A stretch of DNA of 64,000 nt from a virus (IMGVR_UViG_3300046008_000242:185363-249362), one strand, 5' to 3'. Counted from the first letter of the stretch, positions 5,251-58,257 are shown. The notes: generated by a model not told the origin, from the letters alone. Numbers and translations: made by a program.

Positions 5251-5283
5251 TTTCTAAATGTAACCATTTATATTCAAATGATT

Positions 5284-13393: not shown

Positions 13394-13747
13394 TTATTCC
13401 TCAAATAGTGAATTGGGATTATAAACATACAATTTCTTTTTAAGTTTCTGAGTGTATTTTACTGCATCTTTTGTTCCTGGAGAGATACCATCCCAGACGG
13501 CAATAACAATATCTGATGCTTCGATTATCAGTTTGTTTCTTATCATGCCAGCAGCTTGACCATATTTGTCCCATTCTGCATCAATTATAAGTTTTGGTAT
13601 GTTATTGTAATCAGCATATCTTTCAGCTAATGTATCGACACCATCGGCTCCACCAGAAACAATCATGGTTATATTATGTTGAGAAAGTATTGATTCAACA
13701 TATTGGTAATCGGTAAAGGATCTTGAACCTATGACTGCATATTTCAT
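13394..13747 (-). CDS. SLOG-superfamily protein (DUF2493/YspA-like)
   Basis: AVIGSRSF..., IVSGGADGVDTLAERYA, AEWDKYGQAAGMIRNKLII, AVWDGISPGTKDAV match the DUF2493 pattern. Confidence 0.6.
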   Translation of the reverse strand: MKYAVIGSRSFTDYQYVESILSQHNITMIVSGGADGVDTLAERYADYNNIPKLIIDAEWDKYGQAAGMIRNKLIIEASDIVIAVWDGISPGTKDAVKYTQKLKKKLYVYNPNSLFEE

Positions 13748-25840: not shown

Positions 25841-28684
25841 ATGAAAACATTCTCTGAATTACGCAAACAAATAAACGAAAACAGTCTATATACATCTCAA
25901 CAGGAGAAAGATGACTTCCTGAAAGATAAGAAGAACATCGTCAATGCATTCCTTTATTCGTTTATCGGTAATCTATCATTATACAACAAAGACCCAGCAA
26001 AAGCTAAACATTATTTTGTTGGCGATAAGAAATTACAGATCCAAAACATCACTGATGATAACAATGATGCATCGTTAATCCTAAAGATTATGCATGATGA
26101 AGGTGGTTTCAAGAATTCAAACACAGCCAACAATCTAACCAAACTGTTGGCAAAATTGAAAGTTTCTGATGTAACATTAGATGATACTCTAATGAGAAGT
26201 TGGTTGGCAGATATCTCTCCTTCTTTCCATTCGGTTATTCCAACAGAATTGAAAAAGACTGTTGATGATTACACTCATGGTATCACCAGTTTCGATAGAT
26301 TAAGTTACAAATTGTACAAACATAAAACTGCGTATGGCGATGGAGAGTACCTAGCATTGGCTAAGAAGGTTGGTCGAATTGATAGACATACACATAAACC
26401 AAAAGTTGTTAGTCAAACTCAACCTGCTCCTACTGTAACTCCAGTTACACCAACAATCTCTAATCCTCAGATTGTGGTTCCGGTGGTTAATACAACAACT
26501 GTAACGTCTATTACTCCACCAGATGTTGTAGATGAACCTGTGGTGTTAGAACCACAACCAGAAGTTAAACAATTCAATCAAGAATTGTATGATAGAGTTT
26601 TAAAAAAAACCAAATATCTTTCGACATCTTATCTTGTTCAATTAGATGAATCTGATGTTAAAGAATTGGTGGAAGATTCTGAAGTGTTGATGAAATTAAT
26701 GGAAGATTATCCTAGATTCTTTGGCGATTCTTTAAATCCCTATCAATTTGAAATGGCTAGAGATTATATAATGAAAAATTATACAGAAGAATCAATTATT
26801 AAATTGGGTAAAAATAAAGAAAACTCAATTTGGATTAAATATGATATAAAACAATCTATCAAAATTCTGAATAAAAGAAACATAGACGCCACTAAAGTTT
26901 ATGATGCAATGATTATTGCTCCATATATTTGCGACAAAGATATTGGTATATCTGGGCAACAGATTCTTGATTTTTATGAAAAAAATAAAATTCTAATTTC
27001 ACCAGATAACGGTAATAAGATTGCGCGAGATTTCCCTGAGATATTAGTTGATGCTGTTAAGTTGACAATCAAGGACATGGGTGTCGGATATGTATCTACA
27101 ATGGCTGTTAAATTGAATGAACAACAGATTGATGATGCATTTCCTATTGATAACAAATTATTGGCTCCATTAAATGTTATCTTAACGGGTAGATTGTATA
27201 AAGATTCTTCTGAATTACTAAAGAAATACAATAACAATGAAGTATTGATTATTCAAGCATTAACGGACACTAGCACCCCACATTTTACACCTTACATAAA
27301 TTCATTGAATAAATTGTTCTTCGAGGATATGGATAAATGGTATCCATGGGAACGAAAATATAATTACATGAAACAATTATTAACTAAACCAAATGCCATT
27401 GATTATTTCAACGATAAATTCAAATATGCATTTACTGATGATGGAGTTTTTGATTATTTCTCAGATAAAGAAAGATTAGATGGTATCTCATCATCTTTAT
27501 TCGATTTAATGGTGACCAATTATAAAACAAAATCTGATATTGTTGATTCTTTATTCAATGACCTTGGCGACAAGATTAAATCTAAAGTGAAAAAGAACTT
27601 CGATTCAACATTTAAAGTTATGCACGATTTGAAAAATAGTGCGTTACCAATTAAAGAAGATCTAGACGCAAAGGGTATTAAGAAGATTTTAGAATTCAAC
27701 GGGATTGACCTTAGTGTTATTTCTGGTAATAAAATGAAATTCTCCAAGAATAAATCGTTGAGTCAATCTATTAATGAATATATGAAAGATGGCACCAACA
27801 TCATCGAACCATTAAAAATTGTTGAATTAAAAACAACAGAAGCAGAAAATAAGAAGGTGACTGAGAAGATTGTAAATGAAACTCATTCTGGTGGCAGACA
27901 CGGAGATATCTATCCGTTAATCTTACGTCAATTTGAAGTTCATCTACCTGACGTTCAATTCCAAGAGTTTAAAGAATTGATGATTAAGAATAACACACAT
28001 TCTGAAATTATACCCGCATTCCATGGAACTGGTTCTATAGCAGCCAATATGATTCTTAGATATGGATTTAAAGTTATTCCTGAAAATGATAATTCAGGAA
28101 TTGGTGTTGCTGGTAGAATGTTAGGTGATGGTATCTACTTTGGAACCAATATTGATAAAGTGTTACAATATGTAGGTAATGCTGGAATGACTAGACGATT
28201 GGGAACGACTGGATATGTATTTGAAATGGAAAATGAATTGGGTGTGCAGGGTGAAGATTACACTTCTGCTGGTTTAGGTGGAGATAGAATTGTTTCTCCT
28301 GAATGGTGCGTCTATAATGCCAATAAACAATTAAAAATTATTAAGGCTTACGAAGTGAAATTAGTTGATAGAGCAGAACTAGATAAGACGTTGAATGAAG
28401 CAACCAATAATAGAATGATGTCATTTAAAGAATTCAATAATGCCAAGAAGAACAATTATACATCATACAATTTCTATGACAGAAATGTTATAACACCAGA
28501 TGGTAAAATCATCAAATCATCAGATGTAAATGATAAGACGTTTAAGAAAGGAATTAGAGTTGAGATTCGCGGGAAGATTACATCGATTATCATACCAACT
28601 CGACAATTAGAATTCAATGATATATTATCTTGTTATGATTTACAAGATAATGCATTAAACAAGTATCTTAAATTGGTGAATTAA
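25841..28684 (+). CDS. 947-aa multidomain protein with a C-terminal PARP-like (H-Y-E) ADP-ribosyltransferase domain
   Basis: Plus-strand ORF with ATG at 25841 and an AAAGGAA Shine-Dalgarno. The C-terminus reads AFHGTGSIAANMILRYGF...GRMLGDGIYFGTNIDK...SPEWCVYNANKQLKIIKAYEVKL. This aligns with the PARP1 catalytic signature LWHGSR...GKGIYFAD...YNEYIVYD..LKYLLKL, with H, the Y of GIYF and E all conserved. A Pro/Thr-rich linker PAPTVTPVTPTISNPQIVVPVV sits near residue 200. Confidence 0.75.
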   Translation: MKTFSELRKQINENSLYTSQQEKDDFLKDKKNIVNAFLYSFIGNLSLYNKDPAKAKHYFVGDKKLQIQNITDDNNDASLILKIMHDEGGFKNSNTANNLTKLLAKLKVSDVTLDDTLMRSWLADISPSFHSVIPTELKKTVDDYTHGITSFDRLSYKLYKHKTAYGDGEYLALAKKVGRIDRHTHKPKVVSQTQPAPTVTPVTPTISNPQIVVPVVNTTTVTSITPPDVVDEPVVLEPQPEVKQFNQELYDRVLKKTKYLSTSYLVQLDESDVKELVEDSEVLMKLMEDYPRFFGDSLNPYQFEMARDYIMKNYTEESIIKLGKNKENSIWIKYDIKQSIKILNKRNIDATKVYDAMIIAPYICDKDIGISGQQILDFYEKNKILISPDNGNKIARDFPEILVDAVKLTIKDMGVGYVSTMAVKLNEQQIDDAFPIDNKLLAPLNVILTGRLYKDSSELLKKYNNNEVLIIQALTDTSTPHFTPYINSLNKLFFEDMDKWYPWERKYNYMKQLLTKPNAIDYFNDKFKYAFTDDGVFDYFSDKERLDGISSSLFDLMVTNYKTKSDIVDSLFNDLGDKIKSKVKKNFDSTFKVMHDLKNSALPIKEDLDAKGIKKILEFNGIDLSVISGNKMKFSKNKSLSQSINEYMKDGTNIIEPLKIVELKTTEAENKKVTEKIVNETHSGGRHGDIYPLILRQFEVHLPDVQFQEFKELMIKNNTHSEIIPAFHGTGSIAANMILRYGFKVIPENDNSGIGVAGRMLGDGIYFGTNIDKVLQYVGNAGMTRRLGTTGYVFEMENELGVQGEDYTSAGLGGDRIVSPEWCVYNANKQLKIIKAYEVKLVDRAELDKTLNEATNNRMMSFKEFNNAKKNNYTSYNFYDRNVITPDGKIIKSSDVNDKTFKKGIRVEIRGKITSIIIPTRQLEFNDILSCYDLQDNALNKYLKLVN

Positions 28685-30805: not shown

Positions 30806-31019
30806 TTGCACTTTGTTCTTTCCAATCAAGCCTTAAATCATTTTGTTTAAGATATCCCACTATAGAATCATGGATTACATTTCTGAAACATTGATGTAAT
30901 TTGAATCCAGGAATCTTAATTCCAATGTTCTTTGAGATCCATACAGAAACTTCTTTTTCTGTATAATTGACCAATTCGCGTATCTGGTGGTCTTTTAATC
31001 CATTCATATCAACCAACAC
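30798..31019 (-). CDS. hypothetical protein, 73 aa
   Basis: ORF track. Confidence 0.4.
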   Translation of the reverse strand: MLVDMNGLKDHQIRELVNYTEKEVSVWISKNIGIKIPGFKLHQCFRNVIHDSIVGYLKQNDLRLDWKEQSAND

Positions 31020-31398
31020 CTTTATGTTCTAACCATCTATTCCTAAATTCCCATAACACAGTAGCCTGACAATTATTCCCTTCTTTCCCGAATATATCAG
31101 ATAACCCAGAATACTTTGTCAATTCATCTAACAACAGAGGATTTTCCTGTAGATATTCCAACCATAACTGTTTATACAATGTTGTACATTCTTTCATGTT
31201 GATAATCGAATGGAGTTTCTGATATTGTTTACATGATTTGGGATCTAACCCAGTAACTCCATCATCAAACACTTTAGATGATTGATAGATGTTCTCAATA
31301 GTATCGTTCCTTCTTTTAATGTAAGCAAAGAAAGTCGAAAATCGTTTATCTCCTTTCGATGAACATTCAAGGAAAGGTTCTTCCCCGCGTCTAACCAT
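31009..31398 (-). CDS. hypothetical protein, 129 aa
   Basis: ORF track. Confidence 0.5.
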   Translation of the reverse strand: MVRRGEEPFLECSSKGDKRFSTFFAYIKRRNDTIENIYQSSKVFDDGVTGLDPKSCKQYQKLHSIINMKECTTLYKQLWLEYLQENPLLLDELTKYSGLSDIFGKEGNNCQATVLWEFRNRWLEHKGVG

Positions 31399-31880: not shown

Positions 31881-32453
31881 TTATACGTTGATACCAAATT
31901 GATTTGCCAATGTTTTTAATCCACCAGCATATCCTTGACCAACAGCTTTGAACTTCCATTCATTATTGTATCTATAAACCTCACCAAAAATCATTGCCGT
32001 CTCTGATGACATATCTTCAGTCAAATCAAATCGTAATACTTCAATTCCAGTGTCTTTATTGACTAATCGAATATACGCATTTTTAACTTGACCGAAATTC
32101 TGACGGCGTTGTTCCGCATCATGAATCGTCACAGTAATACTAATCTTATCGACAGACGAATCAACTAATGTTAATTTAATTGTAATCTGTTCATCATCAC
32201 CTTCACCAGACCCAGTCAAATTATCGCCAAGATGTTCAACCGAATTATCAACAGATTTCAATTGATTGTAGAAGATGAAATCAGAATCACTTCTAACTTT
32301 ATCATTTTTCAAAAGAAATGCCGAAGCATCTAAATCAAACGGACTACCATCAGTGGTTCTAGCATCCCAACCTAATCCAACAATAATGTTTGTTAAAGAT
32401 GGATCTGTTTTAGTTAATGAAAGATTGTTGCCTTTTTGTAATGTTAATGCCAT
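31881..32453 (-). CDS. TerD-domain stress-response protein
   Basis: [27 protein letters not shown] ... [15 protein letters not shown] ... [14 protein letters not shown] matches the TerD/TerE/TerZ pattern. Confidence 0.8.
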
Positions 32454-32464
32454 GATATGAATTC

Positions 32465-33148
32465 CTATAGATAAGTTTTTTGAATTGTTGAAATGATTCC
32501 GTCTAATGTTCTATCGTTAGTGGGTTCTCCGATGGCATTAAACTTCCATGAATCTTTGTGTCTATACAATTTACCAAGAACCATAGACACTTTATTGTTG
32601 AACGTTGAATCTTTTGCGATATTGTATCCAGCTAATACATCATCCACTCTAGTTGGAGTTCCTTCATAAATTCTAATTGAAGCAAATGGAATACTATCAA
32701 ATTGTTGACCTCTATATGAATTCAAAACAATAAAGATTTGGTCAACAGATGATTTCACTCTGGTTAGATCTAATGTGATGATTTCATTATCTAAACCATC
32801 ATCTCCGTTTGAATCTCCAACTAGGTCGTCGCCAGAATGTTTAATTCCAGTTCCATTTAATTTACCATAATAGATTGTCTCATCTTTAGAATTACCTTGG
32901 AATGTAATACAACTAACATCCAAATCAACAGCTGTTCTTCCAATCATACCCCAATTGACACCAACGCAGACGTTTGTTAATGATTTCCCATTCTTTTCTA
33001 ATGAAATACGTTGACCTTTAACCAGAGTGAGTTTAGGTTGTTTCTGTTGTTGAACTTGTTCGATTGAATTCTGTACAATTTGTCTAGTTGTATTAACAGA
33101 CCCTTCGATGTTATCGACCACTGTTCTGATTGCGTCAAAAATGCTCAT
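32465..33148 (-). CDS. TerD-domain protein (second, divergent paralogue)
   Basis: [24 protein letters not shown] ... [19 protein letters not shown] ... WKFNAIGE. Confidence 0.7.
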
Positions 33149-33223
33149 AATATATTTGTTTCCTTTGTTGACTTATTGTTAAACAAGTCAACATTATAAT
33201 GGATTTATTTAAAAAGTAAAGGA

Positions 33224-34693
33224 TTAAAGATTATCTGATACAATCTTACGAATTTCAGCTAATGATGTTTCCTTAACCAACTTGCCGTCTTTGAATACAA
33301 CTTCTAAACATCCATGTTTTTCATGCTTTGGTTCAACATTATCATTCAATGTATATTGACCATTTTCATGAGATACCATCAATAGACCTTTAGCTGATTT
33401 CTTAGTCCCATCATCCGTTTTTGGATCTTTGAAGATAACTCTTGATTTACCGTTAATTATTGCATAAGTGGATTTAAGTGCAAAACCATGAGTATCTCTT
33501 GTCACATATCCCAACGAATACGAACCAATTCCAAATACTATATTATTAGAAGCAAATCCTTTTTGTTCTAATCTGACGAAAATAGATTGTTGTCGATCTA
33601 ATGTGATAGAATCGCCATAGATAGTGCCAATTTTTGGATTTAATACTTTATAACCTTTAGAGTTAATTGTTCCACCAAAAGTATCCCATAAACATTCAAT
33701 TAAACCTTTGTCTTCTGGCAAACATCCACCTATGATAGGATATATTCCACAAATAATATCAACTGGGTCGCCTGAATCAGGTCTTATAACCAATTTACCT
33801 TCTCGGGATTCAATTCTATCCTTTAATGTAGGAAGATATTCAGTAACAACTTTCCAAAAATCATAACTATCCGCCACATATGAAACGATACCAGTTGGAT
33901 AAACTTCTGTTATAATTCGGGTCAACGTTTCTAATTCATCTTCGTGTCCTCCTGAACAAACTACACTATGTTCGCTTGCTGGTACAGAATATGCTATGTC
34001 CGTTGTTGCTCCATAATATTCTTTAGCAAGTAAGATAGCTGGTATCGTATCTGTTCCTTTTGAACCAGTTGCAATAAAAGCAAACCCAGAAATTGCAGCA
34101 GCTTCTTTACATTGCATACCTCTCATACTAAAATCATGTTGTTGGAAAGGAACAAATGAATTATCATCACATGTCTTTTCTGAAAACTCTAAACTTTTAT
34201 TATAAAATGCTCGTGATGTGGTTGCGGTTGAACAAGGTAACCAAAGTTCTGCGGATAATACAGTTTCAATCATATTAGTCACCCAGAAGAATTCAGGTAA
34301 CGTATTTTTAATTGTTAAAACAGGTACACCATATGGAACAAACGAACCTTCTGGTAACGCTTTAATTTCAATTGGAAGATACCCTAAGTCATATAACGAT
34401 TCAATATGACTGACATTAGTTTCTCCTAATGAATCATCAACAATTTCTTTATATGACTGGATAACGAAATCTTTGGGTTGTTTAAAGAATGTTTCGCCCC
34501 ATTCGCGGATTAAATGTTTAATAATAAAGTATTGTAATCCAATAAAGTAAATACCTTTAGATCCAGGAATGTTTGATAATCTACCCGAACGAGGTGTAAA
34601 GTTAGAATAAATTAATTCCGTCCCTTTTGGATATTGATTAACATGTGACACTTTATAAAAATCTTTTTGTAATGGTGCAAAATTTGTAGACAT
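33224..34693 (-). CDS. nicotinamide phosphoribosyltransferase family protein (NAMPT/NadV-like; alternatively a Namat-type NAD-reconstitution enzyme)
   Basis: 489 aa. N-terminal DFYKVSHVNQYPKGT (the NAMPT DSYK.THY.QYP motif), GTDTIPA, SVPASEHS, and the overall NAMPT length. The track start at 34705 is a TTG; the first ATG is at 34693. Confidence 0.8.
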   Translation of the reverse strand: MSTNFAPLQKDFYKVSHVNQYPKGTELIYSNFTPRSGRLSNIPGSKGIYFIGLQYFIIKHLIREWGETFFKQPKDFVIQSYKEIVDDSLGETNVSHIESLYDLGYLPIEIKALPEGSFVPYGVPVLTIKNTLPEFFWVTNMIETVLSAELWLPCSTATTSRAFYNKSLEFSEKTCDDNSFVPFQQHDFSMRGMQCKEAAAISGFAFIATGSKGTDTIPAILLAKEYYGATTDIAYSVPASEHSVVCSGGHEDELETLTRIITEVYPTGIVSYVADSYDFWKVVTEYLPTLKDRIESREGKLVIRPDSGDPVDIICGIYPIIGGCLPEDKGLIECLWDTFGGTINSKGYKVLNPKIGTIYGDSITLDRQQSIFVRLEQKGFASNNIVFGIGSYSLGYVTRDTHGFALKSTYAIINGKSRVIFKDPKTDDGTKKSAKGLLMVSHENGQYTLNDNVEPKHEKHGCLEVVFKDGKLVKETSLAEIRKIVSDNL

Positions 34694-34714
34694 AATATCT
34701 CTCAATAATTTATT

Positions 34715-35980
34715 TTAAAAATCATATAGTGGAAGTTTACCAACTAACCAATTAGTATCAACTGTTTCATTTTTGTTTAAAATTTTTTCTTCTTTTGTTG
34801 TTGGATTATACACCCAATGCTCTTTTCTTGTAATTACTATTTCATGAGGTTTGATTTCCGCAAAAATAATGTTATACACCCCAATCTCATGAATTGATCT
34901 TACTGTAGTTTTACCTTTATATTTTTTTGAATATAAACCAGTTTTAAATTCTTCAATTGTTATATAAACACGGTTTCCGTTCATATCAATTGCGGAAACC
35001 ATACCAATTGATGTTCCATTATAATTTCCAGAATCGAATTCTTCTTTAGAAATTTGTCTAGTTGTTCCATTTTCATCTTTTATTATAACTTTACCTTTAT
35101 TTACATGTTCATACTCATGTATATTTTCTTTATTTATTCGTAAATTATTTCCATTTTCGTCTTTTACAATTACAAAGCCTTTATTTACTCCATCATAGTT
35201 GCCAGAATCGAATTCTTCTTTAGAAATTTGTCTAGTTGTTCCATTTTCATCTTTTATTACAACTTTACCTTTACTAATACCAACAAAAATATTACTATAA
35301 AATTCGTCAGATTTGATCCTAATAATTTTACCATTTTCATCTAATGCTACGACAAATCCAGAACTAGGAGTAATATAATTTCCAGAATCGAATTCTTCTT
35401 TAGAAATTCTTTTTGTACATTCGGTATCATTTAAAATAACTACAAAGCCTTTATTTACTCCATCATAGTTGCCAGAATCGAATTCTTCTTTAGAAATTTG
35501 TCTAGTTGTTCCATTTTCATCTTTTATTACAACTTTACCTTTATTATTACCAACATAATTTCCAGAATAAAATTCTTTAGTTGTGATCCTAATAATTTTA
35601 CCATTTTCATCTAATGCAGAAACAAATCCTCTATTATAATAAAAATTTTCATATTTAGTTTTATATTTTTTATTATCGTCGCCGACCATCATTGTTAATG
35701 AAAATGACATCGAAAAATTTTTAGGGTATATTTTAGTTAATAAAATATGGGCAATAATATGTTGTTCGAATGTTAAAACAACGCCATTCCAAGGAAACTC
35801 TTTTATATTTTTATATTCTGGAAATAAATCTTTTGCTTTTGGACAAATATGATGAACTTCACAATAAATACTCTTTCCTATAAATTTATTTTTTATCCTA
35901 CATTTTTCTATGAAATTTTTATAATGATTGATATAAAATTCATTGCATGGTTTTGTTTTTAAAATTTCTAAATAATCCAT
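34715..35980 (-). CDS. Mob-like HNH homing endonuclease inserted between the NAMPT fragment and the full NAMPT gene
   Basis: EVHHICPKAKDLFPEY plus repeated GNY...KGxVVI modules. It is a paralogue of the HNH at 57006..58253. Confidence 0.75.
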   Translation of the reverse strand: MDYLEILKTKPCNEFYINHYKNFIEKCRIKNKFIGKSIYCEVHHICPKAKDLFPEYKNIKEFPWNGVVLTFEQHIIAHILLTKIYPKNFSMSFSLTMMVGDDNKKYKTKYENFYYNRGFVSALDENGKIIRITTKEFYSGNYVGNNKGKVVIKDENGTTRQISKEEFDSGNYDGVNKGFVVILNDTECTKRISKEEFDSGNYITPSSGFVVALDENGKIIRIKSDEFYSNIFVGISKGKVVIKDENGTTRQISKEEFDSGNYDGVNKGFVIVKDENGNNLRINKENIHEYEHVNKGKVIIKDENGTTRQISKEEFDSGNYNGTSIGMVSAIDMNGNRVYITIEEFKTGLYSKKYKGKTTVRSIHEIGVYNIIFAEIKPHEIVITRKEHWVYNPTTKEEKILNKNETVDTNWLVGKLPLYDF

Positions 35981-36500
35981 AACATAATAACCTTTTTAAA
36001 TTTAAGTTATAATTATTTATAAATTTTCTTGTCGCCGATGTGATAGGCAACCACATTTCACAACTCAATACAGTTTCAATGTAATTAGTCAACCAGAAGA
36101 ACTCTGGTTTGTTATTGATAACAGTTAATAATGACACTTTAAATGGAACAAATGAACCTTCTGGTAATGCTTTGATTGTGATAGGAAGATATCCCAAATC
36201 ATGTAATGCTTCGATATGAGATACATCCATATCTGTATTCAACATTTTATCCACAAATCGTTTGTATTTTTTAACGACTTGTTCTTTTGGTTTATTGAAG
36301 AAGGTTCTATTCCATTCATCGATAAGATATTCTTTGATGAAATATTGTAATCCTACAAAATAAACACCTTTACAATCTTTGATTCCAGAATGTTTACCAG
36401 AACGAGCAGTGAAGTTTGAATACACCACTTCCGTTCCTGTAGGATATTGAAAAATGTGTCCCAATTTATATGCGTCTGTTGATAATAATGCGTCGCTCAT
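35940..36500 (-). pseudogene. truncated NAMPT paralogue, N-terminal about 165 aa only
   Basis: MSDALLSTDAYKLGHIFQYPTGT...PEFFWLTNYIETVLSCEMWLPITSATRKF is collinear with residues 8-175 of the full NAMPT, at an estimated 60% identity. Reading then continues into unrelated sequence until a stop. Confidence 0.6.
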
Positions 36501-36726
36501 GTTGTTCTCCTAGTTAAAATAATTTGTTTTCTTTTACATTCATCTTGGTATGCTCGTATTATGCGTAATCAATAACATTTTTAGAATTTTTGTATTCTTA
36601 ATTGTATTAAGACCAAACATGGGAGTCAAATCAAGTTTATCACCGTTGCTTGTAACTTCCAAATCCTCAATCTTATTATTATCGATATTTCTGAAAAAGT
36701 CAAGAGCAGATTTAAAATCATTTAAT

Positions 36727-37134
36727 TCAACTTCCATTAGATTTAACCTTATGGATTAACATCTTACATAAATCATAAGTGAACGATAAACCAGCTCTGT
36801 CGTCTAATAATAAATTGAAGAACGGTTTCCTTGTTCTGTATAAAGGAGATTCATTAACATAATCAGGAACAATACCAACTGATTTACAATATGTAACAGC
36901 TTCTGTTAATTCGATTCCTTCTCTACATGTAAACAAGATTAGCTTACAATTAATGGATACCAATTCATGTAACAATTTAATCATCTCAGGATACGTATCT
37001 CCATTACCCTGATAATCAAAAATGGTATTGTCAAAATCAAATCCGATAAACAATGATTGATGTTTGTTGTATTCTTCTAATAATCGATTGAATGTATTTT
37101 GTTCATTTAAGAATCTATCTGATGTCGGTTCCAT
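36727..37134 (-). CDS. HAD-superfamily hydrolase-like protein, 135 aa
   Basis: FDFDNTIF (DxDxT motif I), then a Thr-containing TCREG block at motif II position. Confidence 0.5.
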   Translation of the reverse strand: MEPTSDRFLNEQNTFNRLLEEYNKHQSLFIGFDFDNTIFDYQGNGDTYPEMIKLLHELVSINCKLILFTCREGIELTEAVTYCKSVGIVPDYVNESPLYRTRKPFFNLLLDDRAGLSFTYDLCKMLIHKVKSNGS

Positions 37135-37135
37135 T

Positions 37136-37990
37136 TTATTCCCCTAATACGTCTAATACAATAACTCTTTCATCTGTTGATTCCTCGATGAATGAATTCG
37201 TAGTGTAAATTTTATCGATACAATCTTCAAACAATATGTCAACACCTTTGCTAAAAATGCCATGTGTAACATATAATGAAATCTTACCAACATTACGTTG
37301 TTTCAACACTTTGGCAATCTCTTGGAAGGTTCGTCCACCGTCACAGATGTCATCTACAATCAATACATCTTTGCCATTAAAATCGTCGCGATACACTTCT
37401 GTTCTAATGATATGACCATTAGAATCGCGTTCCTTATTTGATTGGACAACAGTTAATCCATATTCAGATGCCAATTTATAGATCTTCTTGCTTGCTCCAA
37501 AATCAGGAGATACCAATACGACATCTTTGAGTAAATCAATATCCATTGTTTCTTCAAACGATTTAATGATGGTATTTTGTTCAAAATTATTAAAATTGTC
37601 GAATAATGCTTTGGCTGTATCTGAATGTACATCTAATGTTGATACAGAATTGTATTCTTGTGAATTGATTAATTCGGCAAACACTTTCAACGATAATGAT
37701 TCTCCATCATCTGAGATCTTGTCTTGTCTTGAATATGGTAGATAAGGTAAGACCAAATCAATTGGTAACTTAGAACCATACGTTGATTTTAATGAATTGG
37801 TAACCATCAACAATTCCATAATATCATCTGATGATTTGATTCTGGTTTTGATTAATGCGGTGGAAATCGTATGTTTTGGTAAATCTTTTAACTGGACATG
37901 AACTTCACCACCAGAAAATTTAAAGAAGTTTGTATCAGTGATGATGATTGAATCTTCTTTGTTAAAAATTGTAACACTTACTATACTCAT
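37136..37990 (-). CDS. ribose-phosphate pyrophosphokinase family protein (PRPP synthetase, or Adps-like ADP-ribose pyrophosphokinase)
   Basis: FSGGEVHVQL, LPYLPYSRQDK, VLVSPDFGASKK, and the PRPP-binding loop DVLIVDDICDGGRTF. Confidence 0.8.
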   Translation of the reverse strand: MSIVSVTIFNKEDSIIITDTNFFKFSGGEVHVQLKDLPKHTISTALIKTRIKSSDDIMELLMVTNSLKSTYGSKLPIDLVLPYLPYSRQDKISDDGESLSLKVFAELINSQEYNSVSTLDVHSDTAKALFDNFNNFEQNTIIKSFEETMDIDLLKDVVLVSPDFGASKKIYKLASEYGLTVVQSNKERDSNGHIIRTEVYRDDFNGKDVLIVDDICDGGRTFQEIAKVLKQRNVGKISLYVTHGIFSKGVDILFEDCIDKIYTTNSFIEESTDERVIVLDVLGE

Positions 37991-38005
37991 TTGGGTTTCT
38001 CCAGT

Positions 38006-38308
38006 TTAAAATTTTGTTAATGCAGATTTCATATTGTACGTAAATTCACATTCTGTGTCATTTTCAATAGATATTGAAAGCATTCTTGTTTTTGGTAAAT
38101 AAAAAGGAACAACTTGTGCATTTTTAAAAACAATCAAAATGTTTGTCCAATTACAACATTCTTCCGAAGATTCAATTTTCAAGGTAAATGATTTATTGAT
38201 TGTAGCTGCTTTTTCGAGCAATTCTTTAATTGGATGTGCTTGATGATTGTTGTCTTGTTTGATAATCAATTCAAGAATTTTGTTTTTGTTTAATTTTGAT
38301 ACGCTCAT
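38006..38308 (-). CDS. hypothetical protein, 100 aa
   Basis: ORF track; an AAGGTGG Shine-Dalgarno follows the PeSL promoter. Confidence 0.5.
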   Translation of the reverse strand: MSVSKLNKNKILELIIKQDNNHQAHPIKELLEKAATINKSFTLKIESSEECCNWTNILIVFKNAQVVPFYLPKTRMLSISIENDTECEFTYNMKSALTKF

Positions 38309-38341
38309 TTTATACCACCTTTATAAATTGTTTGATTTAAG

Positions 38342-38400
38342 TTCATTGGATTCTTCCAACTTGAAATCTATTATAAAGGTTATCTCAGACATCGAAAGAT
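38342..38400 (-). promoter_or_regulatory. PeSL-like early promoter cassette
   Basis: Near-identical to the 21112 copy (ttcattggattcttccaacttgaaatctattataaaggttatc...catcgaaag). It lies 35-95 bp upstream of the start at 38308. Confidence 0.6.
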
Positions 38401-39972: not shown

Positions 39973-40201
39973 GATTGTTTCCTTCTAGATGATTACAAAG
40001 TTCTTCTGGTGTCTGGAAAGTATCCCATTCTTCAGTTTCATTGTTATATACAGCCCAATACGATTCACCAACCCATGGAGAAACTGACATAATGTTATTT
40101 TCAAAATATGTAGTTCCAGAAGCAATATCATAATGTATAATATCATCTTCGTTAGGATTCTTTAAGATTTCAAGTAATGTTCTATTCATGGTCGTCTTCA
40201 A
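39965..40201 (-). CDS. hypothetical protein, 78 aa
   Basis: ORF track. Confidence 0.4.
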   Translation of the reverse strand: MKTTMNRTLLEILKNPNEDDIIHYDIASGTTYFENNIMSVSPWVGESYWAVYNNETEEWDTFQTPEELCNHLEGNNHV

Positions 40202-40721
40202 TTATTTTTAAAATTTCATCAACTGTCGAATTAGAAACAGTTATGGTGTGTACTATTTTAAGAACGTATAATTCCTTTAATACATTAGAACGTATATTTG
40301 AATCAATATACATAGCTTCTTGTACTGTCTGATTTCTACCATATTCTTGGAACTCATGATGTTCTAAATTGCGCTCCAAGAAGATTTCAATGTTATCAAA
40401 CAAATCATGCCCATCAACAATTAATTGTTTTAGAATTGGCAAATCATAATCATCCGAAATATAATTGAGTTGCATCAACAACGGAGAATCTGTAATTACG
40501 TAATCGACTTGACCTTTCAATCTTCGGAGTTTTGCTAATTGTTTGGCGAATACGTATTCCTGATTCTTAAGAATGGTATGACGTTTATCGTAAGTCAAGT
40601 CTTTTGCGTATTCTGTTACAAGTTCAACCTTATATCCTCTTGATTTCATCTGATAAAATAATCCAGCTGCAGTAGTTGATTTACCTGTACCAGGTCCACC
40701 GTATAAATTAATTACTTTCAT
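40182..40721 (-). CDS. P-loop NTPase or small kinase (AAA_28/NadR-kinase-like)
   Basis: N-terminal Walker A LYGGPGTGKSTTAAGL and a DSP Walker B-like motif. Compact size of 179 aa. Confidence 0.5.
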   Translation of the reverse strand: MKVINLYGGPGTGKSTTAAGLFYQMKSRGYKVELVTEYAKDLTYDKRHTILKNQEYVFAKQLAKLRRLKGQVDYVITDSPLLMQLNYISDDYDLPILKQLIVDGHDLFDNIEIFLERNLEHHEFQEYGRNQTVQEAMYIDSNIRSNVLKELYVLKIVHTITVSNSTVDEILKIIEDDHE

Positions 40722-43337: not shown

Positions 43338-43760
43338 TTACGGTTTCGTTCCTTCCATGAACAAACCAACGTTTTTCTTTTGTTTATTGATAAACGATGT
43401 TAATCCTAAAATTTTAGCTTCATAATCTAAACATGTATCATATAATGCAGAATTATACATCCCAACACAATAATCAACATATTCCATAAATTTTTCAGCT
43501 GGTAAATCCTTGTTTTTAATTAGATTGTAAAAATCTAATGGTCTGTTGTAATATTCTGTTACATCAACTGGGTCGATAGCAATAATTTGATAAAAATCAT
43601 ATTCTTCGTTTCTGGATAATGAAATCAATTCAAGATTCATATTTCCGAAATGTTCTTTCCAATCATCTAATGACGGTGAATCATTATTCAATTTAGAAAA
43701 TATATTGTTTTCCAATGTAATACTATATCCATCTGTTGTTTTATGGGCTTGATATTTCAC
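43338..43760 (-). CDS. hypothetical protein, 140 aa
   Basis: ORF track. Confidence 0.45.
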   Translation of the reverse strand: MKYQAHKTTDGYSITLENNIFSKLNNDSPSLDDWKEHFGNMNLELISLSRNEEYDFYQIIAIDPVDVTEYYNRPLDFYNLIKNKDLPAEKFMEYVDYCVGMYNSALYDTCLDYEAKILGLTSFINKQKKNVGLFMEGTKP

Positions 43761-44176
43761 ATCATTCTCTCAGCATATTGTTGAATTCTAGTATTATATG
43801 AATTTACCATTTCGGAACAGTATCCAAGATAATCTGATGTGATGATGCCAAATCCACCACGTTCATTAATCAAATCAACCACGGCTTTAAAACTTCTCAA
43901 CTGGAATTCATCAAATCCATCAGGAACAATGCATACAATTGTTTGTTTCTGAATATGAACCGAATCAACCATTTCGGCAATAGAGAACACTCCAGTCATT
44001 TCCTTTGTAATAACATAAAGATGGATGTTACATAATTCTTTCTGTTGTTTCTCAATTTCTTGACATTCTGGAGTCCAATCTTTTACCACAGGATTGAAAT
44101 AATCAATGGTCAATAAAGGAATAAGTTCTTCTCTCCATGTAGTGTTATTACATGTACCGCCTAAAAACACTTTCAT
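43757..44176 (-). CDS. nucleoside 2-deoxyribosyltransferase-like (NDT-fold) protein
   Basis: MKVFLGGTCNNTTWREELIPLL...NP fits the N-terminal (I/V)(Y/F)LAG..........NP signature of the NDT-like family. Confidence 0.45.
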   Translation of the reverse strand: MKVFLGGTCNNTTWREELIPLLTIDYFNPVVKDWTPECQEIEKQQKELCNIHLYVITKEMTGVFSIAEMVDSVHIQKQTIVCIVPDGFDEFQLRSFKAVVDLINERGGFGIITSDYLGYCSEMVNSYNTRIQQYAERMM

Positions 44177-44287: not shown

Positions 44288-44746
44288 TTATTCATATTCA
44301 AACCCATCAGATACAATTTCAGCCAACATTGATTCAATACTATCATGAACCTTAACTTCTGGTCTAATTAAACTTAATTGAGTGATAACATCGTTACGGC
44401 GTTGATAATCAGGGTGACATGTAACAAAAATCTGTTTATTAGATGCAGCCTGAACTCCTAATTCATATAATGTAATAGGACAAAGTGTTTCTGGAGCAAA
44501 ATAGAACAAGACTGAATCTGCAATATGTAGATGTTCGTATTCCCATGTAATCTGTTCTTTTGTCATATTAGGATTAGACACATCAAAATTAGAACGTCTT
44601 GGATTCAATAGATCCACATCATAATCGTCTAATAATGAAATCATTTCAGATTGCCAATCAGAACAATTTGTAATTCCACCTGCAAGGAAGATTGATGGAG
44701 TTTGTTCTTGTTTAACATAAACTTCTGGACATTGTATTTCTTTCAT
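44288..44746 (-). CDS. NDT-fold protein, second paralogue
   Basis: SIFLAGGITNCSDWQSEMISLLDD...LNP ... YEL mirrors the adjacent gene. Confidence 0.45.
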   Translation of the reverse strand: MKEIQCPEVYVKQEQTPSIFLAGGITNCSDWQSEMISLLDDYDVDLLNPRRSNFDVSNPNMTKEQITWEYEHLHIADSVLFYFAPETLCPITLYELGVQAASNKQIFVTCHPDYQRRNDVITQLSLIRPEVKVHDSIESMLAEIVSDGFEYE

Positions 44747-55888: not shown

Positions 55889-56989
55889 TTATCCGAAGAA
55901 CTCATCCAAATTTGATTTTGCTTCAGTGTTCCATCCCAAAGGTTCAACCATATTTTTCATCTTAGATAAGAACGCCTTCTCAAACTGTAATTCATAATCA
56001 ACATATTTGTCAAGCTCAAATTCTTTTGGTATCGTATCAACAAACGCGATTACATTTTCTTTCAACGGATTTGGTGTCTTAAGATATGTGAATTTAATCT
56101 TATCGCCATTCTTAATCAATTGATGCGTTTTTTCCAATCCATGTTTTTTAATCATCTGATTGTACATAATTGAACCTCTAACATGGATAGGGGTTCCTGA
56201 TGCGTATCCAGATGTGGTCACAAATTTATCGATATCGGATACGCCAGATGGATTAGCAATTTCTGATATAGTCATATTCATGAATTGTTTTTTAATTCCT
56301 TCGACATACGTATGAATATCTGATTCTTCCTTGTAGAACAATATAGGTAATGAATCCTTTAGTAATGTTCTAATCAATTTTGGAGTAGATGATTTAACAA
56401 GATCTAATCCCATGACCTTTAATTTCGGTTTCTCGTATCTAACACCTTCTGAATCCCATACGTCCATGGCATAACGTTTCTTCTGTACGACAATAGAAGC
56501 AGCCGCAATGTTTTCGCGATCCATGACCATACGATTTTCATAAGCATGCATATATTCGGTCAAATTCTCAAACGATTTTTTAATAACAGGACTGATTATC
56601 TTTTCAGAAAAATTATCTAAAAAATCAACAATTTCCAATTCAGTCTTATCGGCGTAACCAGATATTTCAACAATTCTGTTTAAATTCAAGTAGTTAGAGT
56701 CAGTATCTACCATTATTACAAAGTCTATATTTTCAGTTTTACAACATTTGTTCAAAAATGCATTTAAATCTCTAGCAACCCATTGGATAGCAAGCCTTCC
56801 ACCTGTTGTAATACTTTCGGCTAATCTAACATCGAAGTATCTAAAGTATGGAGCCCCAGCTGCTCCAAATAAACTATTACTAGCTATTTTTAGAGCCATT
56901 TGAGCAACATGTAACATAGAAATCTCTTTTTCTAATGTTTTTTTGTATACCAATAACTCAGAATCACTCATTTGTTTAAATTCGTTCAT
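55889..56989 (-). CDS. 43: DNA polymerase gp43, C-terminal segment (43B): motifs B and C plus the thumb
   Basis: KIASNSLFGAAG is motif B K...NS.YG. IMVDTDSNYL is motif C DTDS. It has its own ATG and, together with 43A, gives 883 aa, compared with about 898 aa for T4 gp43. Confidence 0.85.
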   Translation of the reverse strand: MNEFKQMSDSELLVYKKTLEKEISMLHVAQMALKIASNSLFGAAGAPYFRYFDVRLAESITTGGRLAIQWVARDLNAFLNKCCKTENIDFVIMVDTDSNYLNLNRIVEISGYADKTELEIVDFLDNFSEKIISPVIKKSFENLTEYMHAYENRMVMDRENIAAASIVVQKKRYAMDVWDSEGVRYEKPKLKVMGLDLVKSSTPKLIRTLLKDSLPILFYKEESDIHTYVEGIKKQFMNMTISEIANPSGVSDIDKFVTTSGYASGTPIHVRGSIMYNQMIKKHGLEKTHQLIKNGDKIKFTYLKTPNPLKENVIAFVDTIPKEFELDKYVDYELQFEKAFLSKMKNMVEPLGWNTEAKSNLDEFFG

Positions 56990-57005
56990 ATATTTTCCTA
57001 TTAAG

Positions 57006-58253
57006 TTATGATAACCAAACGTCTGATTCTGGATTGATTGTTAAAGATCCTTTTGTATAATCTTTACTACTATGAAATTTGAACGGAAATATAGAAATAC
57101 AAACATTTTCCCATTCTGCGCCAACATTATGTTTTTTTCTAGAAACCTTTGTAAAAATTCTATTACCATTCTTATATAGTTTCTTCAAATTTATTGCAGC
57201 TAGAATAACATTTTCTTCCACTTGTAACATATTACAAATATGTATATGATTCTGAGTGAAGTATTTGATTCCATTATATAAAATTTCATACACTGGAGTT
57301 GGAAATAATGCTTCCCAAGATGAACTAGGATATTGTTGAATATCCTTCATGTATTTCAATTTGGTAATTAAATTATAATGATGTTTGATAAATGTAAAAG
57401 GATTACCTCGTTGTCCGAAGTCTGCTCGTTTACATATCCACCCTTCACCATCTGGTTTAATTTTATGCTTAGTTGATTCTTTTGTTATTTCATTATACCA
57501 AAATCTAGCTTCTGTTTGAAATTCAGACATTTGATGTCGCAAATATTCAGGATAATCATTAGTGTATCCTTCTGGCGGTATTTCATCTGATTTTAGAAAT
57601 AACGGTTTCAGAGTTGGATGATACCAATGAACTCTATCCGATAATGCGACTGACGTCTTATTTCTAGATTCTTCATCTCGCAAAATTCCAAGAGGAATAT
57701 ATCTATCATAATCAACATCATCTGTTGACACTCTTACATTTATTTGATTTACTGTATCATAAACACCACATTTCCCAGAATGCATTTTAGAAGAACGATC
57801 TGACAATTTTTGCTTCACATCCGGAGTATATCTAGTTGGATCGTCAAAATATGCTCGTAATTTTACACTATTATTTTTAGAAGTTTGTTCAGAAAAATCA
57901 TTAGATAAATTTTCATACAATTTTGTTGATATTTTTCTTCCAGTTTGTTTATTGTGGAAATTTGTTAACATATTTGCCGAGTATATTACAGAAACTGACT
58001 GTCTAAACATTTTCCATATCATTAAATGAGCAATTTTATGTTCTTTTAATGTCAATACCGATTTATTCCAAGGATTCATTTTGAAATCAATATATTCAGG
58101 AAACAAATCCTCTGCTCTTGGGCATATATGATGTTCAGTTAGTTTTTCTCCTGGGGTTCTAATTATAGATTTTCTTGATTCTATAAATTTAACATATCGT
58201 TTTACAAAATGTAAATTGTGGGGTTTGGTTATTAAAATTTGATAAATGTCCAT
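57006..58253 (-). CDS. Mob-like HNH homing endonuclease inserted between 43A and 43B
   Basis: TEHHICPRAEDLFPEY is shared with the HNH genes at 34715 and 1786. Only 4 nt separate it from the 43A stop and 16 nt from the 43B start. Confidence 0.75.
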   Translation of the reverse strand: MDIYQILITKPHNLHFVKRYVKFIESRKSIIRTPGEKLTEHHICPRAEDLFPEYIDFKMNPWNKSVLTLKEHKIAHLMIWKMFRQSVSVIYSANMLTNFHNKQTGRKISTKLYENLSNDFSEQTSKNNSVKLRAYFDDPTRYTPDVKQKLSDRSSKMHSGKCGVYDTVNQINVRVSTDDVDYDRYIPLGILRDEESRNKTSVALSDRVHWYHPTLKPLFLKSDEIPPEGYTNDYPEYLRHQMSEFQTEARFWYNEITKESTKHKIKPDGEGWICKRADFGQRGNPFTFIKHHYNLITKLKYMKDIQQYPSSSWEALFPTPVYEILYNGIKYFTQNHIHICNMLQVEENVILAAINLKKLYKNGNRIFTKVSRKKHNVGAEWENVCISIFPFKFHSSKDYTKGSLTINPESDVWLS

Positions 58254-58257
58254 TTTA

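Follow-up and report, generated by a model that had tools for sequence, protein, structure and literature searches.

A probable NARP1-like NAD+ reconstitution operon with a candidate HAD accessory phosphatase and a putative homing cassette within namat in a large T4-like phage

A minus-strand gene block of a large, T4-like phage (genome ~249 kb) is best explained, with a probability of roughly 0.78, as a NARP1-type NAD+ reconstitution operon that includes a HAD accessory phosphatase and carries a homing cassette in its namat gene. The two-enzyme pathway rebuilding NAD+ is already known; the HAD phosphatase as a recurrent third gene is apparently undescribed. The block lies at 33224-37990 of the window, by which we mean the whole 64-kb stretch of DNA analyzed, about one quarter of the genome. 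A preliminary description had placed a Prs-like gene, a NAMPT-like gene and a HAD gene together in this block, and this holds: Pfam and PHROG matches bore out the Prs-like and NAMPT-like genes, and the ORF boundaries agree exactly with its coordinates. It had, however, overlooked a putative HNH endonuclease gene, a namat remnant (ORF 35940-36500) and a 65-aa ORF lying between them (Table 1). It had assigned the HAD gene no specific role.

Table 1 Features of the NARP1-like block (window coordinates).
Feature	Coordinates	Strand	Evidence
Adps-like gene, Prs-family ADP-ribose pyrophosphokinase candidate, 284 aa	37136-37990	-	Pfam, PHROG, HMM profile
Capless (C0) HAD-superfamily phosphatase, candidate accessory phosphatase of the pathway, 135 aa	36727-37134	-	
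65-aa ORF, possibly no gene; overlaps the HAD stop codon	36540-36737	-	
5' remnant (codons 1-157) of the resident namat allele	36030-36500	-	Identity to L005 namat
Putative HNH-type homing endonuclease, 421 aa	34715-35980	-	phrog_655, phrog_12434
Inserted cassette (leader, endonuclease gene, spacer, foreign namat 5' part)	34211-36029	-	blastn, sliding-window identity, junctions
Chimeric full-length Namat, nicotinamide ADPR-transferase candidate, 493-aa ORF	33224-34705	-	Pfam, PHROG, PDB match

The NAMPT-like ORF matched Pfam NAPRTase and NAMPT_N as well as phrog_448 (634 bits), and translation probably begins at the ATG at 34693, which yields 489 aa, as in the JGI gene call. By sequence, the protein is far closer to the crystallized SpβL1 Namat (PDB 9W5W/9W5X, PMC12774641; 494 bits, 50% identity) than to mammalian NAMPT (248-253 bits) or Xanthomonas Nampt (223 bits), and it shares 35% identity with the Nampt encoded by D491s, a Vibrio phage of 253 kb; we took this Nampt as a KVP40-like, NARP2-type proxy. 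Consistently, tblastn scores were bimodal: matches in NARP1 phages reached 330-483 bits (55% identity for PhAER-3, 53% for ICP1), whereas the Nampts of T4-like and large Vibrio phages scored 160-200 bits at 30-32% identity. In the alignment with 9W5W, the SpβL1 catalytic core residues F189, D215 and R306 corresponded to F192, D219 and R308, and the adenine clamp residues R40, F392 and Y396 to R42, Y396 and Y400. The motif described as exclusive to Namat, GS-X-Φ-X-Φ-X-Φ-TRD (SCH), reads GSYSLGYVTRD here; its positions 3 and 7 are Y396 and Y400, R42 lies in the SCL, and position 5 is a leucine, where an aromatic residue is usual. D491s Nampt, by contrast, has G and Q at the two clamp positions and GGGLLQQSDRD in the motif region. 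Since Namat and Nampt each accept both substrates in vitro, clade and clamp residues predict preference, not certainty.

The Prs-like protein matched Pfam Pribosyltran_N, Pribosyltran and Pribosyl_synth and phrog_619 (265 bits), and by its scores it appears to group with the Prs-like proteins encoded next to Namat in phages: on an HMM profile built from 83 such Namat-adjacent proteins it scored 290 bits, against 140 for E. coli Prs. It fell far below every cut-off of the strict NCBIfam Prs models (for instance 130 versus 297), and its PDB match to E. coli Prs was only 83 bits (25% identity). Identity among Adps family members ranges from 22 to 42%, and the best phage matches (~42%) were in NARP1-bearing Vequintavirinae; the placement is based on profile scores and gene neighborhood rather than on a rooted tree. 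The loop DDICDGGRT (213-221) replaces the DDMIDTGGT of Prs and follows the family pattern DD[IL]CDGG.T, and the putative catalytic lysine K186, within KERD, aligns with the catalytic flexible-loop lysine of E. coli Prs (K194) and with the K-x-R-D/N motif of the family; the catalytic lysine of SpβL1 Adps is K162. Moreover, Adps flanked Namat in 78 of 80 IMG/VR Namat loci, in agreement with the published figure of 97% of Adps-clade genes adjoining a Namat homologue (Osterman et al., bioRxiv 10.1101/2024.02.11.579819).

The active-site and clade comparisons of both enzymes therefore came out on the NARP1 side, as had been predicted, and they favor Adps plus Namat over classical Prs plus NAMPT salvage, enzymatic activity being read from sequence. 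The earlier statement that the window holds no NMNAT likewise stood up to motif and Pfam searches: an NMNAT-like (H/T)xGH motif was absent at an NMNAT-like position from all window ORFs of at least 60 aa, and no CTP_transf_like/NMNAT Pfam match was found in any non-overlapping window ORF of at least 140 aa, the window being about a quarter of the 249-kb genome. We also considered two related pathways and set both aside, namely NARP2 (KVP40-clade Nampt plus Nmnat), given the Namat-type clamp, the 30-35% identity to NARP2-type Nampts and the lack of any NMNAT or (H/T)xGH protein in the window, and NARP3 (a PnuC-like transporter plus a bifunctional NadR-like enzyme), for which no PnuC or NMNAT domain was found in the window. 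The sole item encountered on the NARP3 check was an isolated AAA_28 P-loop protein at 40182-40721.

In the proposed pathway, host defences (SIR2, TIR, DSR and similar) would cleave NAD+ into ADP-ribose (ADPR) and nicotinamide, Adps would use ATP to pyrophosphorylate ADPR to ADPR-PP, and Namat would join nicotinamide to ADPR-PP, yielding NAD+ directly and without an NMNAT step; the operon would thereby have an anti-defence role. The phage had also been credited with two NAD consumers of its own, of which the Sir2 is clear (6388-7077, 139 bits) and the PARP-like domain in 25841-28684 weak (22 bits, under the cut-off of 26.7).

The HAD start codon lies 1 nt past the adps stop codon, a spacing that suggests co-translation. 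HAD motifs I (DxDxT), II (S/T), III (K) and IV (DD) are all conserved; across 61 HAD homologues D33, D35, T37, K103, D111 and D112 were invariant and T69 was at least 90% conserved. A high-confidence structure model matches HAD phosphatases and predicts a capless fold with an open active site. Linkage to the pathway is recurrent, the HAD gene adjoining a Namat homologue on the same strand in 133 of the 141 phage records that carry it, in an order that varies from adps-HAD-namat (the window, PhAER-3) to namat-HAD-adps (crAss-like phages) and adps-namat-HAD (Bacillus Bastillevirinae). Moreover, of 80 loci from bacteria and MAGs that encode a HAD homologue, 50 also had Adps and Namat within 6 kb. 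Judged from this genomic context, the HAD gene belongs to the operon as a true third member and does not lie there by chance. The 65-aa ORF that follows it had no match in Pfam, PHROG or NCBIfam and does not resemble the 80-aa ORF that takes its place in the closest relative.

The HAD gene also alternates with a Macro-domain gene, the Macro-domain ADPR-1''P phosphatase (PF01661, PF14519 or PF20016) being what defines Adpp of NARP1-AP. Within the 80 IMG/VR Namat loci, HAD was present in 12, Macro in 21 and both in none (hypergeometric P = 0.019, loci treated without regard to relatedness). In crAss-like loci whose adjacent namat genes are 90-93% identical in nucleotide sequence, the same slot holds HAD (L043, L047, L062) or Macro (L053, L058), and Vibrio phage Chazly21 (Thalassavirus) carries a Macro gene in the exact slot of the window's HAD; in the window itself, no Macro domain was matched in any ORF of the block or in ORFs of at least 140 aa. 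The adps allele beside HAD is only ~70% identical to that beside Macro, so the swapped unit may be the phosphatase together with adps, and the two phosphatases need not share a substrate. HAD is probably a non-homologous accessory phosphatase that feeds ADPR into NARP1, a substrate assignment drawn purely from the linkage and from the swap with Macro. It would convert phosphorylated ADPR, unusable by NARP1, to ADPR, the likeliest substrate being ADPR-1''-phosphate, which is the product of aRES and probably also forms when ADPR-PP breaks down. If true, HAD would be a non-homologous analogue of the Macro-domain phosphatase Adpp.

As read from the sequence, the full-length namat is a chimera, in which the 5' 165 codons are foreign, brought with the endonuclease, and the 3' part is resident. 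Upstream, remnant codons 1-157 are 85% identical in nucleotides and 83-87% in amino acids to the intact namat of the closest relative (L005), with dS 0.58 and omega 0.16; this homology ends at 36030, and the ORF continues to 35940 through 30 unrelated codons (186 aa in total). Breakpoints were set by blastn and sliding-window identity, and the junction sequences were read directly. The cassette comprises a ~45-nt leader with a ribosome-binding site (RBS), the endonuclease gene, a 22-nt spacer and foreign namat codons 1 to ~165; incongruent nearest neighbors of the namat segments support the mosaic, and for the foreign segment the search turned up no donor allele above 71% identity. The endonuclease matched phrog_655 'homing endonuclease' (E 3e-19) and phrog_12434 'HNH endonuclease' and displays an HH...N...H pattern, read directly, but has no Pfam HNH match. 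Its N-terminal nuclease domain of ~105 aa is followed by eight tandem 30-aa repeats (a 90-nt array at 35015-35577 by TRF); the N-terminus shares 40% identity with the endonuclease at 57006-58253, by which the PolB gene of this phage is split, and 48% with an endonuclease from the NARP1 operon of L005; no close relative of the endonuclease was found in IMG/VR.

Over 35588-38371, the junction between remnant and endonuclease included, an independent Logan assembly (SRR35488481) agrees with the window at 100% identity, so this arrangement is no assembly artefact; consistently with mobility of the endonuclease, namat is intact and without insertion at this site in the closest relative. The putative HNH homing endonuclease would have entered the resident namat at about codon 157-165 with a cassette that carried its own diverged copy of the first ~165 namat codons; the 5' remnant upstream would be dead and the chimeric namat downstream of it intact.

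Several other explanations were weighed against this scheme. Classical salvage or auxiliary metabolism, in which the Prs-like enzyme would make PRPP and the NAMPT-like enzyme NMN, the last step to NAD+ being left to the host or to a phage NMNAT gene beyond the window (NARP2-like), is highly unlikely, although Prs and NAMPT/NAPRT are the names that Pfam, PHROG and NCBIfam assign, Namat enzymes can still form NMN in vitro and the NMNAT search covered the window, about 75% of the genome lying outside it. Against it stand the clamp residues and SCH motif, which are Namat-type and absent from KVP40-like Nampt, a score against Namat about twice the roughly 250 bits against NAMPT, the low identity to NARP2-type phage Nampts, and a Prs-like protein that scores below the strict Prs cut-offs and goes with the family encoded beside Namat; moreover, alongside the tight Adps-Namat linkage, no phage was found to carry both pathways (Osterman et al., bioRxiv 10.1101/2024.02.11.579819). 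These observations leave the NARP1-like module as the supported reading of the two enzymes, for which clade, clamp and loops agree.

For the third gene, it is possible but rather unlikely that HAD serves NARP1 with a substrate other than that of Adpp. Cleavage of NADP+ by NADases yields 2'-phospho-ADPR, which could be such a substrate, as could a phospho-ADPR from an undescribed defence or NADP+ itself, in which case the enzyme would tap the NADP pool; HAD and Macro, however, share a slot in near-identical operons and never occurred together in our sample, which fits redundancy better than complementarity. That HAD is an unrelated hitch-hiker beside NAD genes, for example a dNTP-pool nucleotidase or an RNA-repair polynucleotide 3'-phosphatase, is most improbable: the labels given in databases are unspecific or mistaken ('phosphoheptose isomerase', 'hydrolase', 'polynucleotide kinase') and 25 of the 80 bacterial loci, those of the more distant homologues, have no Adps or Namat nearby, but adjacency to Namat across unrelated phage groups and in three gene orders would hardly be expected unless the genes were functionally coupled, and the 1-nt spacing speaks for co-translation with adps. 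Finally, it is barely conceivable that the remnant is alive as exon 1 of an intron-interrupted or split namat, with the endonuclease inside a self-splicing intron. Phage HNH endonucleases are often located in group I introns, and namat is interrupted at recurrent positions in several crAss-like contigs; here, however, the downstream ORF is complete alone, with its own RBS and start codon, the would-be intron contains 165 well-conserved namat codons (omega about 0.25), and an Rfam search of 33100-38400 returned nothing intron-like, even at E = 1.

Compared with NARP1 (Adps plus Namat) as known from Bas63, SpβL1, Fado and ICP1 (Osterman et al., bioRxiv 10.1101/2024.02.11.579819; Lan et al., PMC12774641), the block similarly combines Prs-family and NAMPT-family genes in one phage-borne operon with no NMNAT nearby, and it conserves the Namat catalytic core and adenine clamp and the Adps-type loops. 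Unlike in those systems, adps and namat are 2.4 kb apart, with HAD, the small ORF, the namat remnant and the homing endonuclease between them, namat is a recombinant of two alleles, and identity to characterized members is only 30-55%. The Bas63 operon has been shown to work in a pncC nadR deletion host, in which the routes from NMN to NAD are missing. NARP1-AP of Vibrio phage Gary (Adps, Macro-domain Adpp and Namat; Osterman et al. 2026, bioRxiv 10.64898/2026.01.28.702374) shares the three-gene plan, in which a phosphatase gene lies between adps and namat or next to them, but the phosphatase here is a HAD protein with a predicted Rossmann-like fold and Asp nucleophile, unrelated to Macro in sequence, fold and chemistry. 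The block resembles NARP2 (Nampt plus Nmnat, Vibrio phage KVP40) in that a large T4-like phage encodes a NAMPT-family enzyme, presumably to restore NAD+, and it differs in its Prs-like partner, its Namat-type clamp, the absence of Nmnat from the window and an identity of only 32-35% to a KVP40-like Nampt. The HAD protein is also distinct from the BT_0820 capless HAD phosphatases (PDB 2OBB; NCBIfam NF046079): it is no member of that family, scoring 35.7 bits against a curated cut-off of 165. For BT_0820 itself we found no substrate assigned in the literature.

The endonuclease resembles the free-standing HNH homing endonucleases that occur in T4-like phages, such as the Mob family, in being inserted in or beside a conserved phage gene; mobE reportedly splits nrdA in Aeromonas phage Aeh1. 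In the window, PolB is split cleanly into two ORFs by the paralogous endonuclease. At namat, in contrast, the insertion neither spared its target nor split it in two, the cassette having carried a replacement 5' part and left a dead, duplicated 5' remnant beside a chimeric, presumably functional copy.

The preliminary description had placed a Prs-like, a HAD and a NAMPT-like gene in a minus-strand block at 33224-37990, and both the coordinates and the three assignments were correct, with Pfam and PHROG in agreement. Two further members were absent from that description, an endonuclease and a truncated second NAMPT-like gene (the 186-aa remnant). The arrangement is real, since an independent Logan assembly of SRR35488481 was 100% identical to window 35588-38371, the junction between remnant and endonuclease included. 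The source of the window is a 249,362-bp JGI contig, which its context (UvsX with a mini-intein, a family-B DNA polymerase, DnaB, Cpn10 and several homing endonucleases) shows to be a T4-like phage. An annotated close relative is absent, since a megablast search of 50,697 phage records with the block as query returned a 46-nt match and nothing longer; the closest relatives were two contigs in IMG/VR, 149 and 235 kb long, with 65% identity in the Prs-like protein and 72% in the HAD protein. Promoter and terminator scans gave matches not above shuffled expectation and were left unused.

Positions of the block genes and of other features in the window
Feature	Length (aa)	Position	Strand	Source or remark
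Prs-like protein	284	37136-37990	minus	Pfam, PHROG
HAD-like protein	135	36727-37134	minus	begins 1 nt past the Prs-like stop
ORF without homologues	65	36540-36737	minus	
ORF matching the NAMPT N-terminal domain only	186	35940-36500	minus	Pfam, PHROG
HNH-type homing endonuclease	421	34715-35980	minus	PHROG
Full-length NAMPT-like protein	493	33224-34705	minus	Pfam, PHROG
Sir2		6388-7077		139 bits
UvsX/RecA-like recombinase		9580-11055		mini-intein
SLOG/YAcAr-domain protein		13394-13747		
ORF with PARP-like catalytic domain	947	25841-28684		22 bits (Pfam cut-off 26.7)
NADAR-domain protein		31009-31398		40 bits
TerD-domain gene pair		31881-33148		
AAA_28 P-loop protein	179	40182-40721		
Nucleoside 2-deoxyribosyltransferase-like protein		43757-44176		
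Nucleoside 2-deoxyribosyltransferase-like protein		44288-44746		
PolB gene, split		55889-59811		
PolB N-terminal ORF	517	58258-59811		
Endonuclease between the PolB halves	415	57006-58253		
PolB C-terminal ORF	366	55889-56989		

Phage operons labelled 'Prs + NAMPT' encode instead Adps, which converts ADPR into ADPR-PP, and Namat, which makes NAD+ from ADPR-PP and nicotinamide (together NARP1), while NARP2 pairs a separate Nampt clade with Nmnat (Osterman et al., bioRxiv 10.1101/2024.02.11.579819). Lan et al. (PMC12774641) defined the features separating the two transferases on SpβL1 Namat structures (PDB 9W5W and 9W5X): the catalytic core is common to both, and Namat has an adenine 'selectivity clamp' in addition. 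The window NAMPT-like protein scored 494 bits against 9W5W, compared with 248-253 bits for the mammalian NAMPTs and 223 for the Nampt of Xanthomonas, and alignment placed the six functionally tested Namat positions at R42, F192, D219, R308, Y396 and Y400. Its SCH motif, which carries Y396 and Y400, reads GSYSLGYVTRD; the Nampt of Vibrio phage D491s (253 kb), taken as a stand-in for the KVP40-like, NARP2-type Nampt, reads GGGLLQQSDRD there, the two clamp positions being occupied by Gly and Gln. Searching the 50,697 phage records with the window protein separated two score groups, an upper one of 330-483 bits made up of NARP1-bearing phages (Aeromonas PhAER-3 at 55% identity, ICP1 at 53%, Bacillus, Staphylococcus and Felixounavirus phages) and a lower one of 160-200 bits at 30-32% identity, the Nampts of T4-like and large Vibrio phages.

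The Prs-like protein shared 25% identity with E. coli Prs (83 bits; PDB 4S2U) and was at most 42% identical to the Prs-like proteins of NARP1-bearing coliphages; among NCBIfam models it passed only the broad TIGR01251 subfamily model, far under every strict Prs cut-off. A profile of 83 Prs-like proteins adjoining a Namat homologue, from which the window protein and its close relative were excluded, gave it 290 bits and E. coli Prs 140. Comparison of the active sites showed the ATP-site and catalytic elements kept (FSGGE, RQDK, DVHS and K186 in KERD), with the family-type loop DDICDGGRT instead of the DDMIDTGGT of Prs, and the ~40-residue C-terminal extension of Prs missing. The earlier statement that no NMNAT was recognisable held for the window, which is about one quarter of the 249,362-bp contig: the NMNAT-type (H/T)xGH motif occurred in no window ORF, and Pfam scans of its ~45 non-overlapping ORFs of at least 140 aa yielded no NMNAT-type nucleotidyltransferase, PnuC or Macro domain. 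From the Namat clamp and scores, the Adps profile and the NMNAT-free window we infer a NARP1 module, with predicted Adps and Namat activities, rather than a classical salvage pathway, in keeping with the preliminary description.

An AAA_28 P-loop protein encoded 2 kb upstream of adps, without an attached NMNAT domain, raised NARP3 (a PnuC-like transporter plus a NadR-like enzyme), which was ruled out because NMNAT and PnuC domains are absent from the window. AAA_28 is the kind of domain found in the ribosylnicotinamide-kinase module of NadR, and the protein may be either an enzyme of the NR-kinase type or an ATPase unrelated to it.

The HAD protein carries all four HAD motifs, with D33, D35, T37, K103, D111 and D112 invariant across 61 homologues, and its AlphaFold model (pLDDT 93.6) is a capless HAD core. 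Neither motifs nor fold support the names under which it is filed, 'phosphoheptose isomerase' (RefSeq, PHROG) and 'polynucleotide kinase' (some GenBank records). Membership of the BT0820 family was rejected (35.7 bits, cut-off 165), and the literature searched gave no substrate for BT_0820. The family was present in 141 phage records by tblastn, and a fused HAD + Namat query found the two joined at one place on one strand in 133 records; coverage of at least 80% was taken as both, and therefore as an adjacent HAD, since Namat alone reaches at most 78.5%. Gene order varied by lineage, being adps-HAD-namat in the window, its relatives and Aeromonas PhAER-3, namat-HAD-adps in crAss-like phages and adps-namat-HAD in Bacillus Bastillevirinae; the linkage has thus been kept through rearrangements. 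HAD occurred in ~6-8% of the phage records that have a Namat or Adps homologue, among them Bacillus Bastillevirinae, Klebsiella phages, Lak megaphages and crAss-like phages, and also in Bacteroidota, Paenibacillus and Cohnella genomes. In species-representative bacterial genomes, 50 of the 80 HAD-homologue loci had Adps and Namat within 6 kb (including Flavobacteriaceae, Saprospiraceae, Paenibacillus and Cohnella). The NARP1-linked HAD gene is part of the NARP1 system. In Paenibacillus and Cohnella NARP1 clusters (loci L128, L130, L132, L134, L136, L139, L141 and others), HAD lay directly upstream of adps; the experimentally validated bacterial NARP1 is that of Paenibacillus foliorum, and the published functional test used only adps and namat.

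An in-operon phosphatase of another fold is already described: in NARP1-AP, carried by ~15% of NARP1 operons, the Macro-domain enzyme Adpp yields ADPR from ADPR-1''-phosphate, which the aRES defence produces (Osterman et al. 2026, bioRxiv 10.64898/2026.01.28.702374). A HAD enzyme tied to NARP1 was absent from that paper, its supplementary files and the other literature searched. Among 80 IMG/VR Namat loci, Adps was present in 78, HAD in 12 and Macro in 21, and HAD and Macro together in none (hypergeometric P = 0.019, kinship among loci ignored). In crAss-like contigs whose namat genes were 90-93% identical in DNA, homology ended exactly at the end of namat; the gene that followed was HAD in three loci (L043, L047, L062) and Macro in two (L053, L058), and an adps of ~70% identity came next in each. 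Vibrio phage Chazly21 likewise has a Macro gene in the slot held by HAD in the window and in PhAER-3. The simplest reading of these comparisons is a non-orthologous displacement between the two genes.

HAD would be an alternative accessory phosphatase returning phosphorylated ADPR to the substrate pool of NARP1, and this HAD-bearing operon may be a third, undescribed form of extended NARP1 ('NARP1-HAD'), in which HAD convergently replaced Adpp, either as an ADPR-1''-phosphate phosphatase against aRES-type defence or by acting on a different phospho-ADPR released by a non-canonical NAD-cleaving defence; we put the probability of this reading at roughly 0.45. ADPR-1''-phosphate as the specific substrate, to which the exchange with Macro points, is a slightly more tentative proposal. 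Another phospho-nucleotide as substrate, 2'-phospho-ADPR or NADP+ for example, seems unlikely beside that exchange. A linkage without functional meaning is very improbable given its persistence through three gene orders in unrelated phage groups.

The namat gene of the window has a composite history. In the locus of the closest relative (L005), namat is an uninterrupted 492-aa gene downstream of HAD and a small ORF, and between its adps and HAD genes runs a different HNH endonuclease gene in the opposite direction. The remnant matched codons 1-157 of L005 namat at 85% nt and 83-87% aa identity, homology stopping at window 36030, whereas codons 1-157 of the full-length copy reached only 55-60% aa identity to L005, no nearer than to PhAER-3 or SpβL1 Namat. 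Codons 166-228 of the full copy were 66% (aa) and 81-82% (nt) identical to L005, and its last 73 residues 82% (aa), against 42-57% for other Namats. Values of dS against L005 were 0.58 for the remnant, 0.70 for codons 166-228 of the full copy and 1.40 (dN 0.37) for its codons 1-160. In a collection of 5.8 billion proteins, the two nearest to the remnant (P0246, 86%; P0245, 83%) were likewise the two nearest to the last third of the full-length protein (75%), while its N-terminal third was nearest to P0244 (71%) and P0243 (69%), P0246 falling to 58% there. Identity, dS and nearest neighbours thus establish a mosaic, laid out in this order: resident codons 1-157, an AT-rich leader of ~45 nt with an RBS, the endonuclease, a 22-nt spacer with an RBS, foreign codons 1 to ~165, and resident codons ~166 to the end. 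Since sliding-window nt identity past codon 228 alternates between 52% and 89% and the baseline dS between the two phages is 0.6-1.7, only the 1-165/166-228 breakpoint is claimed. An omega as low as 0.16 in the remnant points to a truncation that is recent relative to the divergence of the two phages.

This structure would have arisen by an intron-less homing or recombination event, from a donor phage whose own namat was directly preceded by the endonuclease gene; the right-hand exchange would have been homologous, in the conserved stretch near PEFFW.TN.IETVLS.E.WLP, and the left-hand join illegitimate. No donor was found with the full protein as query (best match to the foreign N-terminus 71%), nor with the 171-aa N-terminal segment, whose matches were all of about its own length, many being truncated ORFs. 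An intron was rejected as the cause of the insertion: Rfam gave no intron-like RNA at gathering thresholds in the window and seven other loci (five crAss-like split-namat loci included), and none at E ≤1 inside the block. The endonuclease begins with a nuclease domain, after which come eight tandem repeats of 30 aa; the nuclease domain is 40% identical to the N-terminus of the endonuclease that cleanly splits PolB in the same window, at Pfam DNA_pol_B position 144/145, and a pattern search of IMG/VR found no relatives of the namat-site enzyme.

Related HNH endonuclease genes, oriented against the operon, separate adps from the gene after it in L005 (7856-8797) and in three further loci, L018-L020 (~4600-5800, ~1400-2400 and ~4600-5600), and NARP1 operons look like recurrent landing sites of homing endonucleases. 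Elsewhere namat is split into two or three ORFs (L031, L032, L044, L045, L048, L052, L054, L060, L083, L103, L123), with breaks mostly near profile positions 255 and 405, near 185 in L083 and L123, and gaps of 65-1200 nt; Rfam gave no group I intron in the six of these loci that it covered. Such breakage accounts for many 270-290-aa 'NAMPT_N' database proteins, and unrecognised introns, endonuclease insertions, frameshifts and recoding are candidate causes.

As for the NAD consumers named in the preliminary description, the Sir2 stood, and the PARP-like ART was a weak match below the Pfam cut-off. A NADAR-domain protein (DarT1-associated ADP-ribose hydrolase family) is encoded a few genes downstream of namat both in the window and in L005 (11661-12059) and may be a further NAD- or ADP-ribose-related counter-defence gene. 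The TerD pair lies downstream of namat in the window and upstream of adps in L005 (5579-6901), so gene order around NARP1 has changed between close relatives. The window also encodes, side by side, two nucleoside 2-deoxyribosyltransferase-like proteins, and elsewhere a SLOG/YAcAr-domain protein, families often tied to nucleotide or ADPR-derived ligands, and its UvsX has an in-frame mini-intein (Intein_splicing and Hint matches at about residues 211-342).

Few anti-phage strategies of bacteria are as common as NAD+ depletion, and the main response known in phages is NARP1, the weak point of which is its requirement for plain ADPR; the only published fix is the Macro-domain phosphatase countering aRES (bioRxiv 10.64898/2026.01.28.702374). 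A second, unrelated phosphatase, equally tied to NARP1 and swapping with Macro, suggests that phosphorylated ADPR may be a more general obstacle to phages than one defence system implies, makes HAD a ready candidate for biochemistry, and corrects a 'phosphoheptose isomerase' misannotation widespread in >100 phage genomes. The chimeric namat indicates that a homing endonuclease can invade an essential-when-needed gene without destroying it, by means of a cassette-borne spare 5' end, and that anti-defence genes are themselves targeted by selfish elements. Set against known systems, nothing in the block is categorically new, its functions being predicted ones: the Adps-Namat core is a diverged new member of a known system, the gene-patching endonuclease cassette an unusual, secondary curiosity, and the HAD-bearing architecture, of which the literature searched held no description, a new and widespread variant of NARP1.
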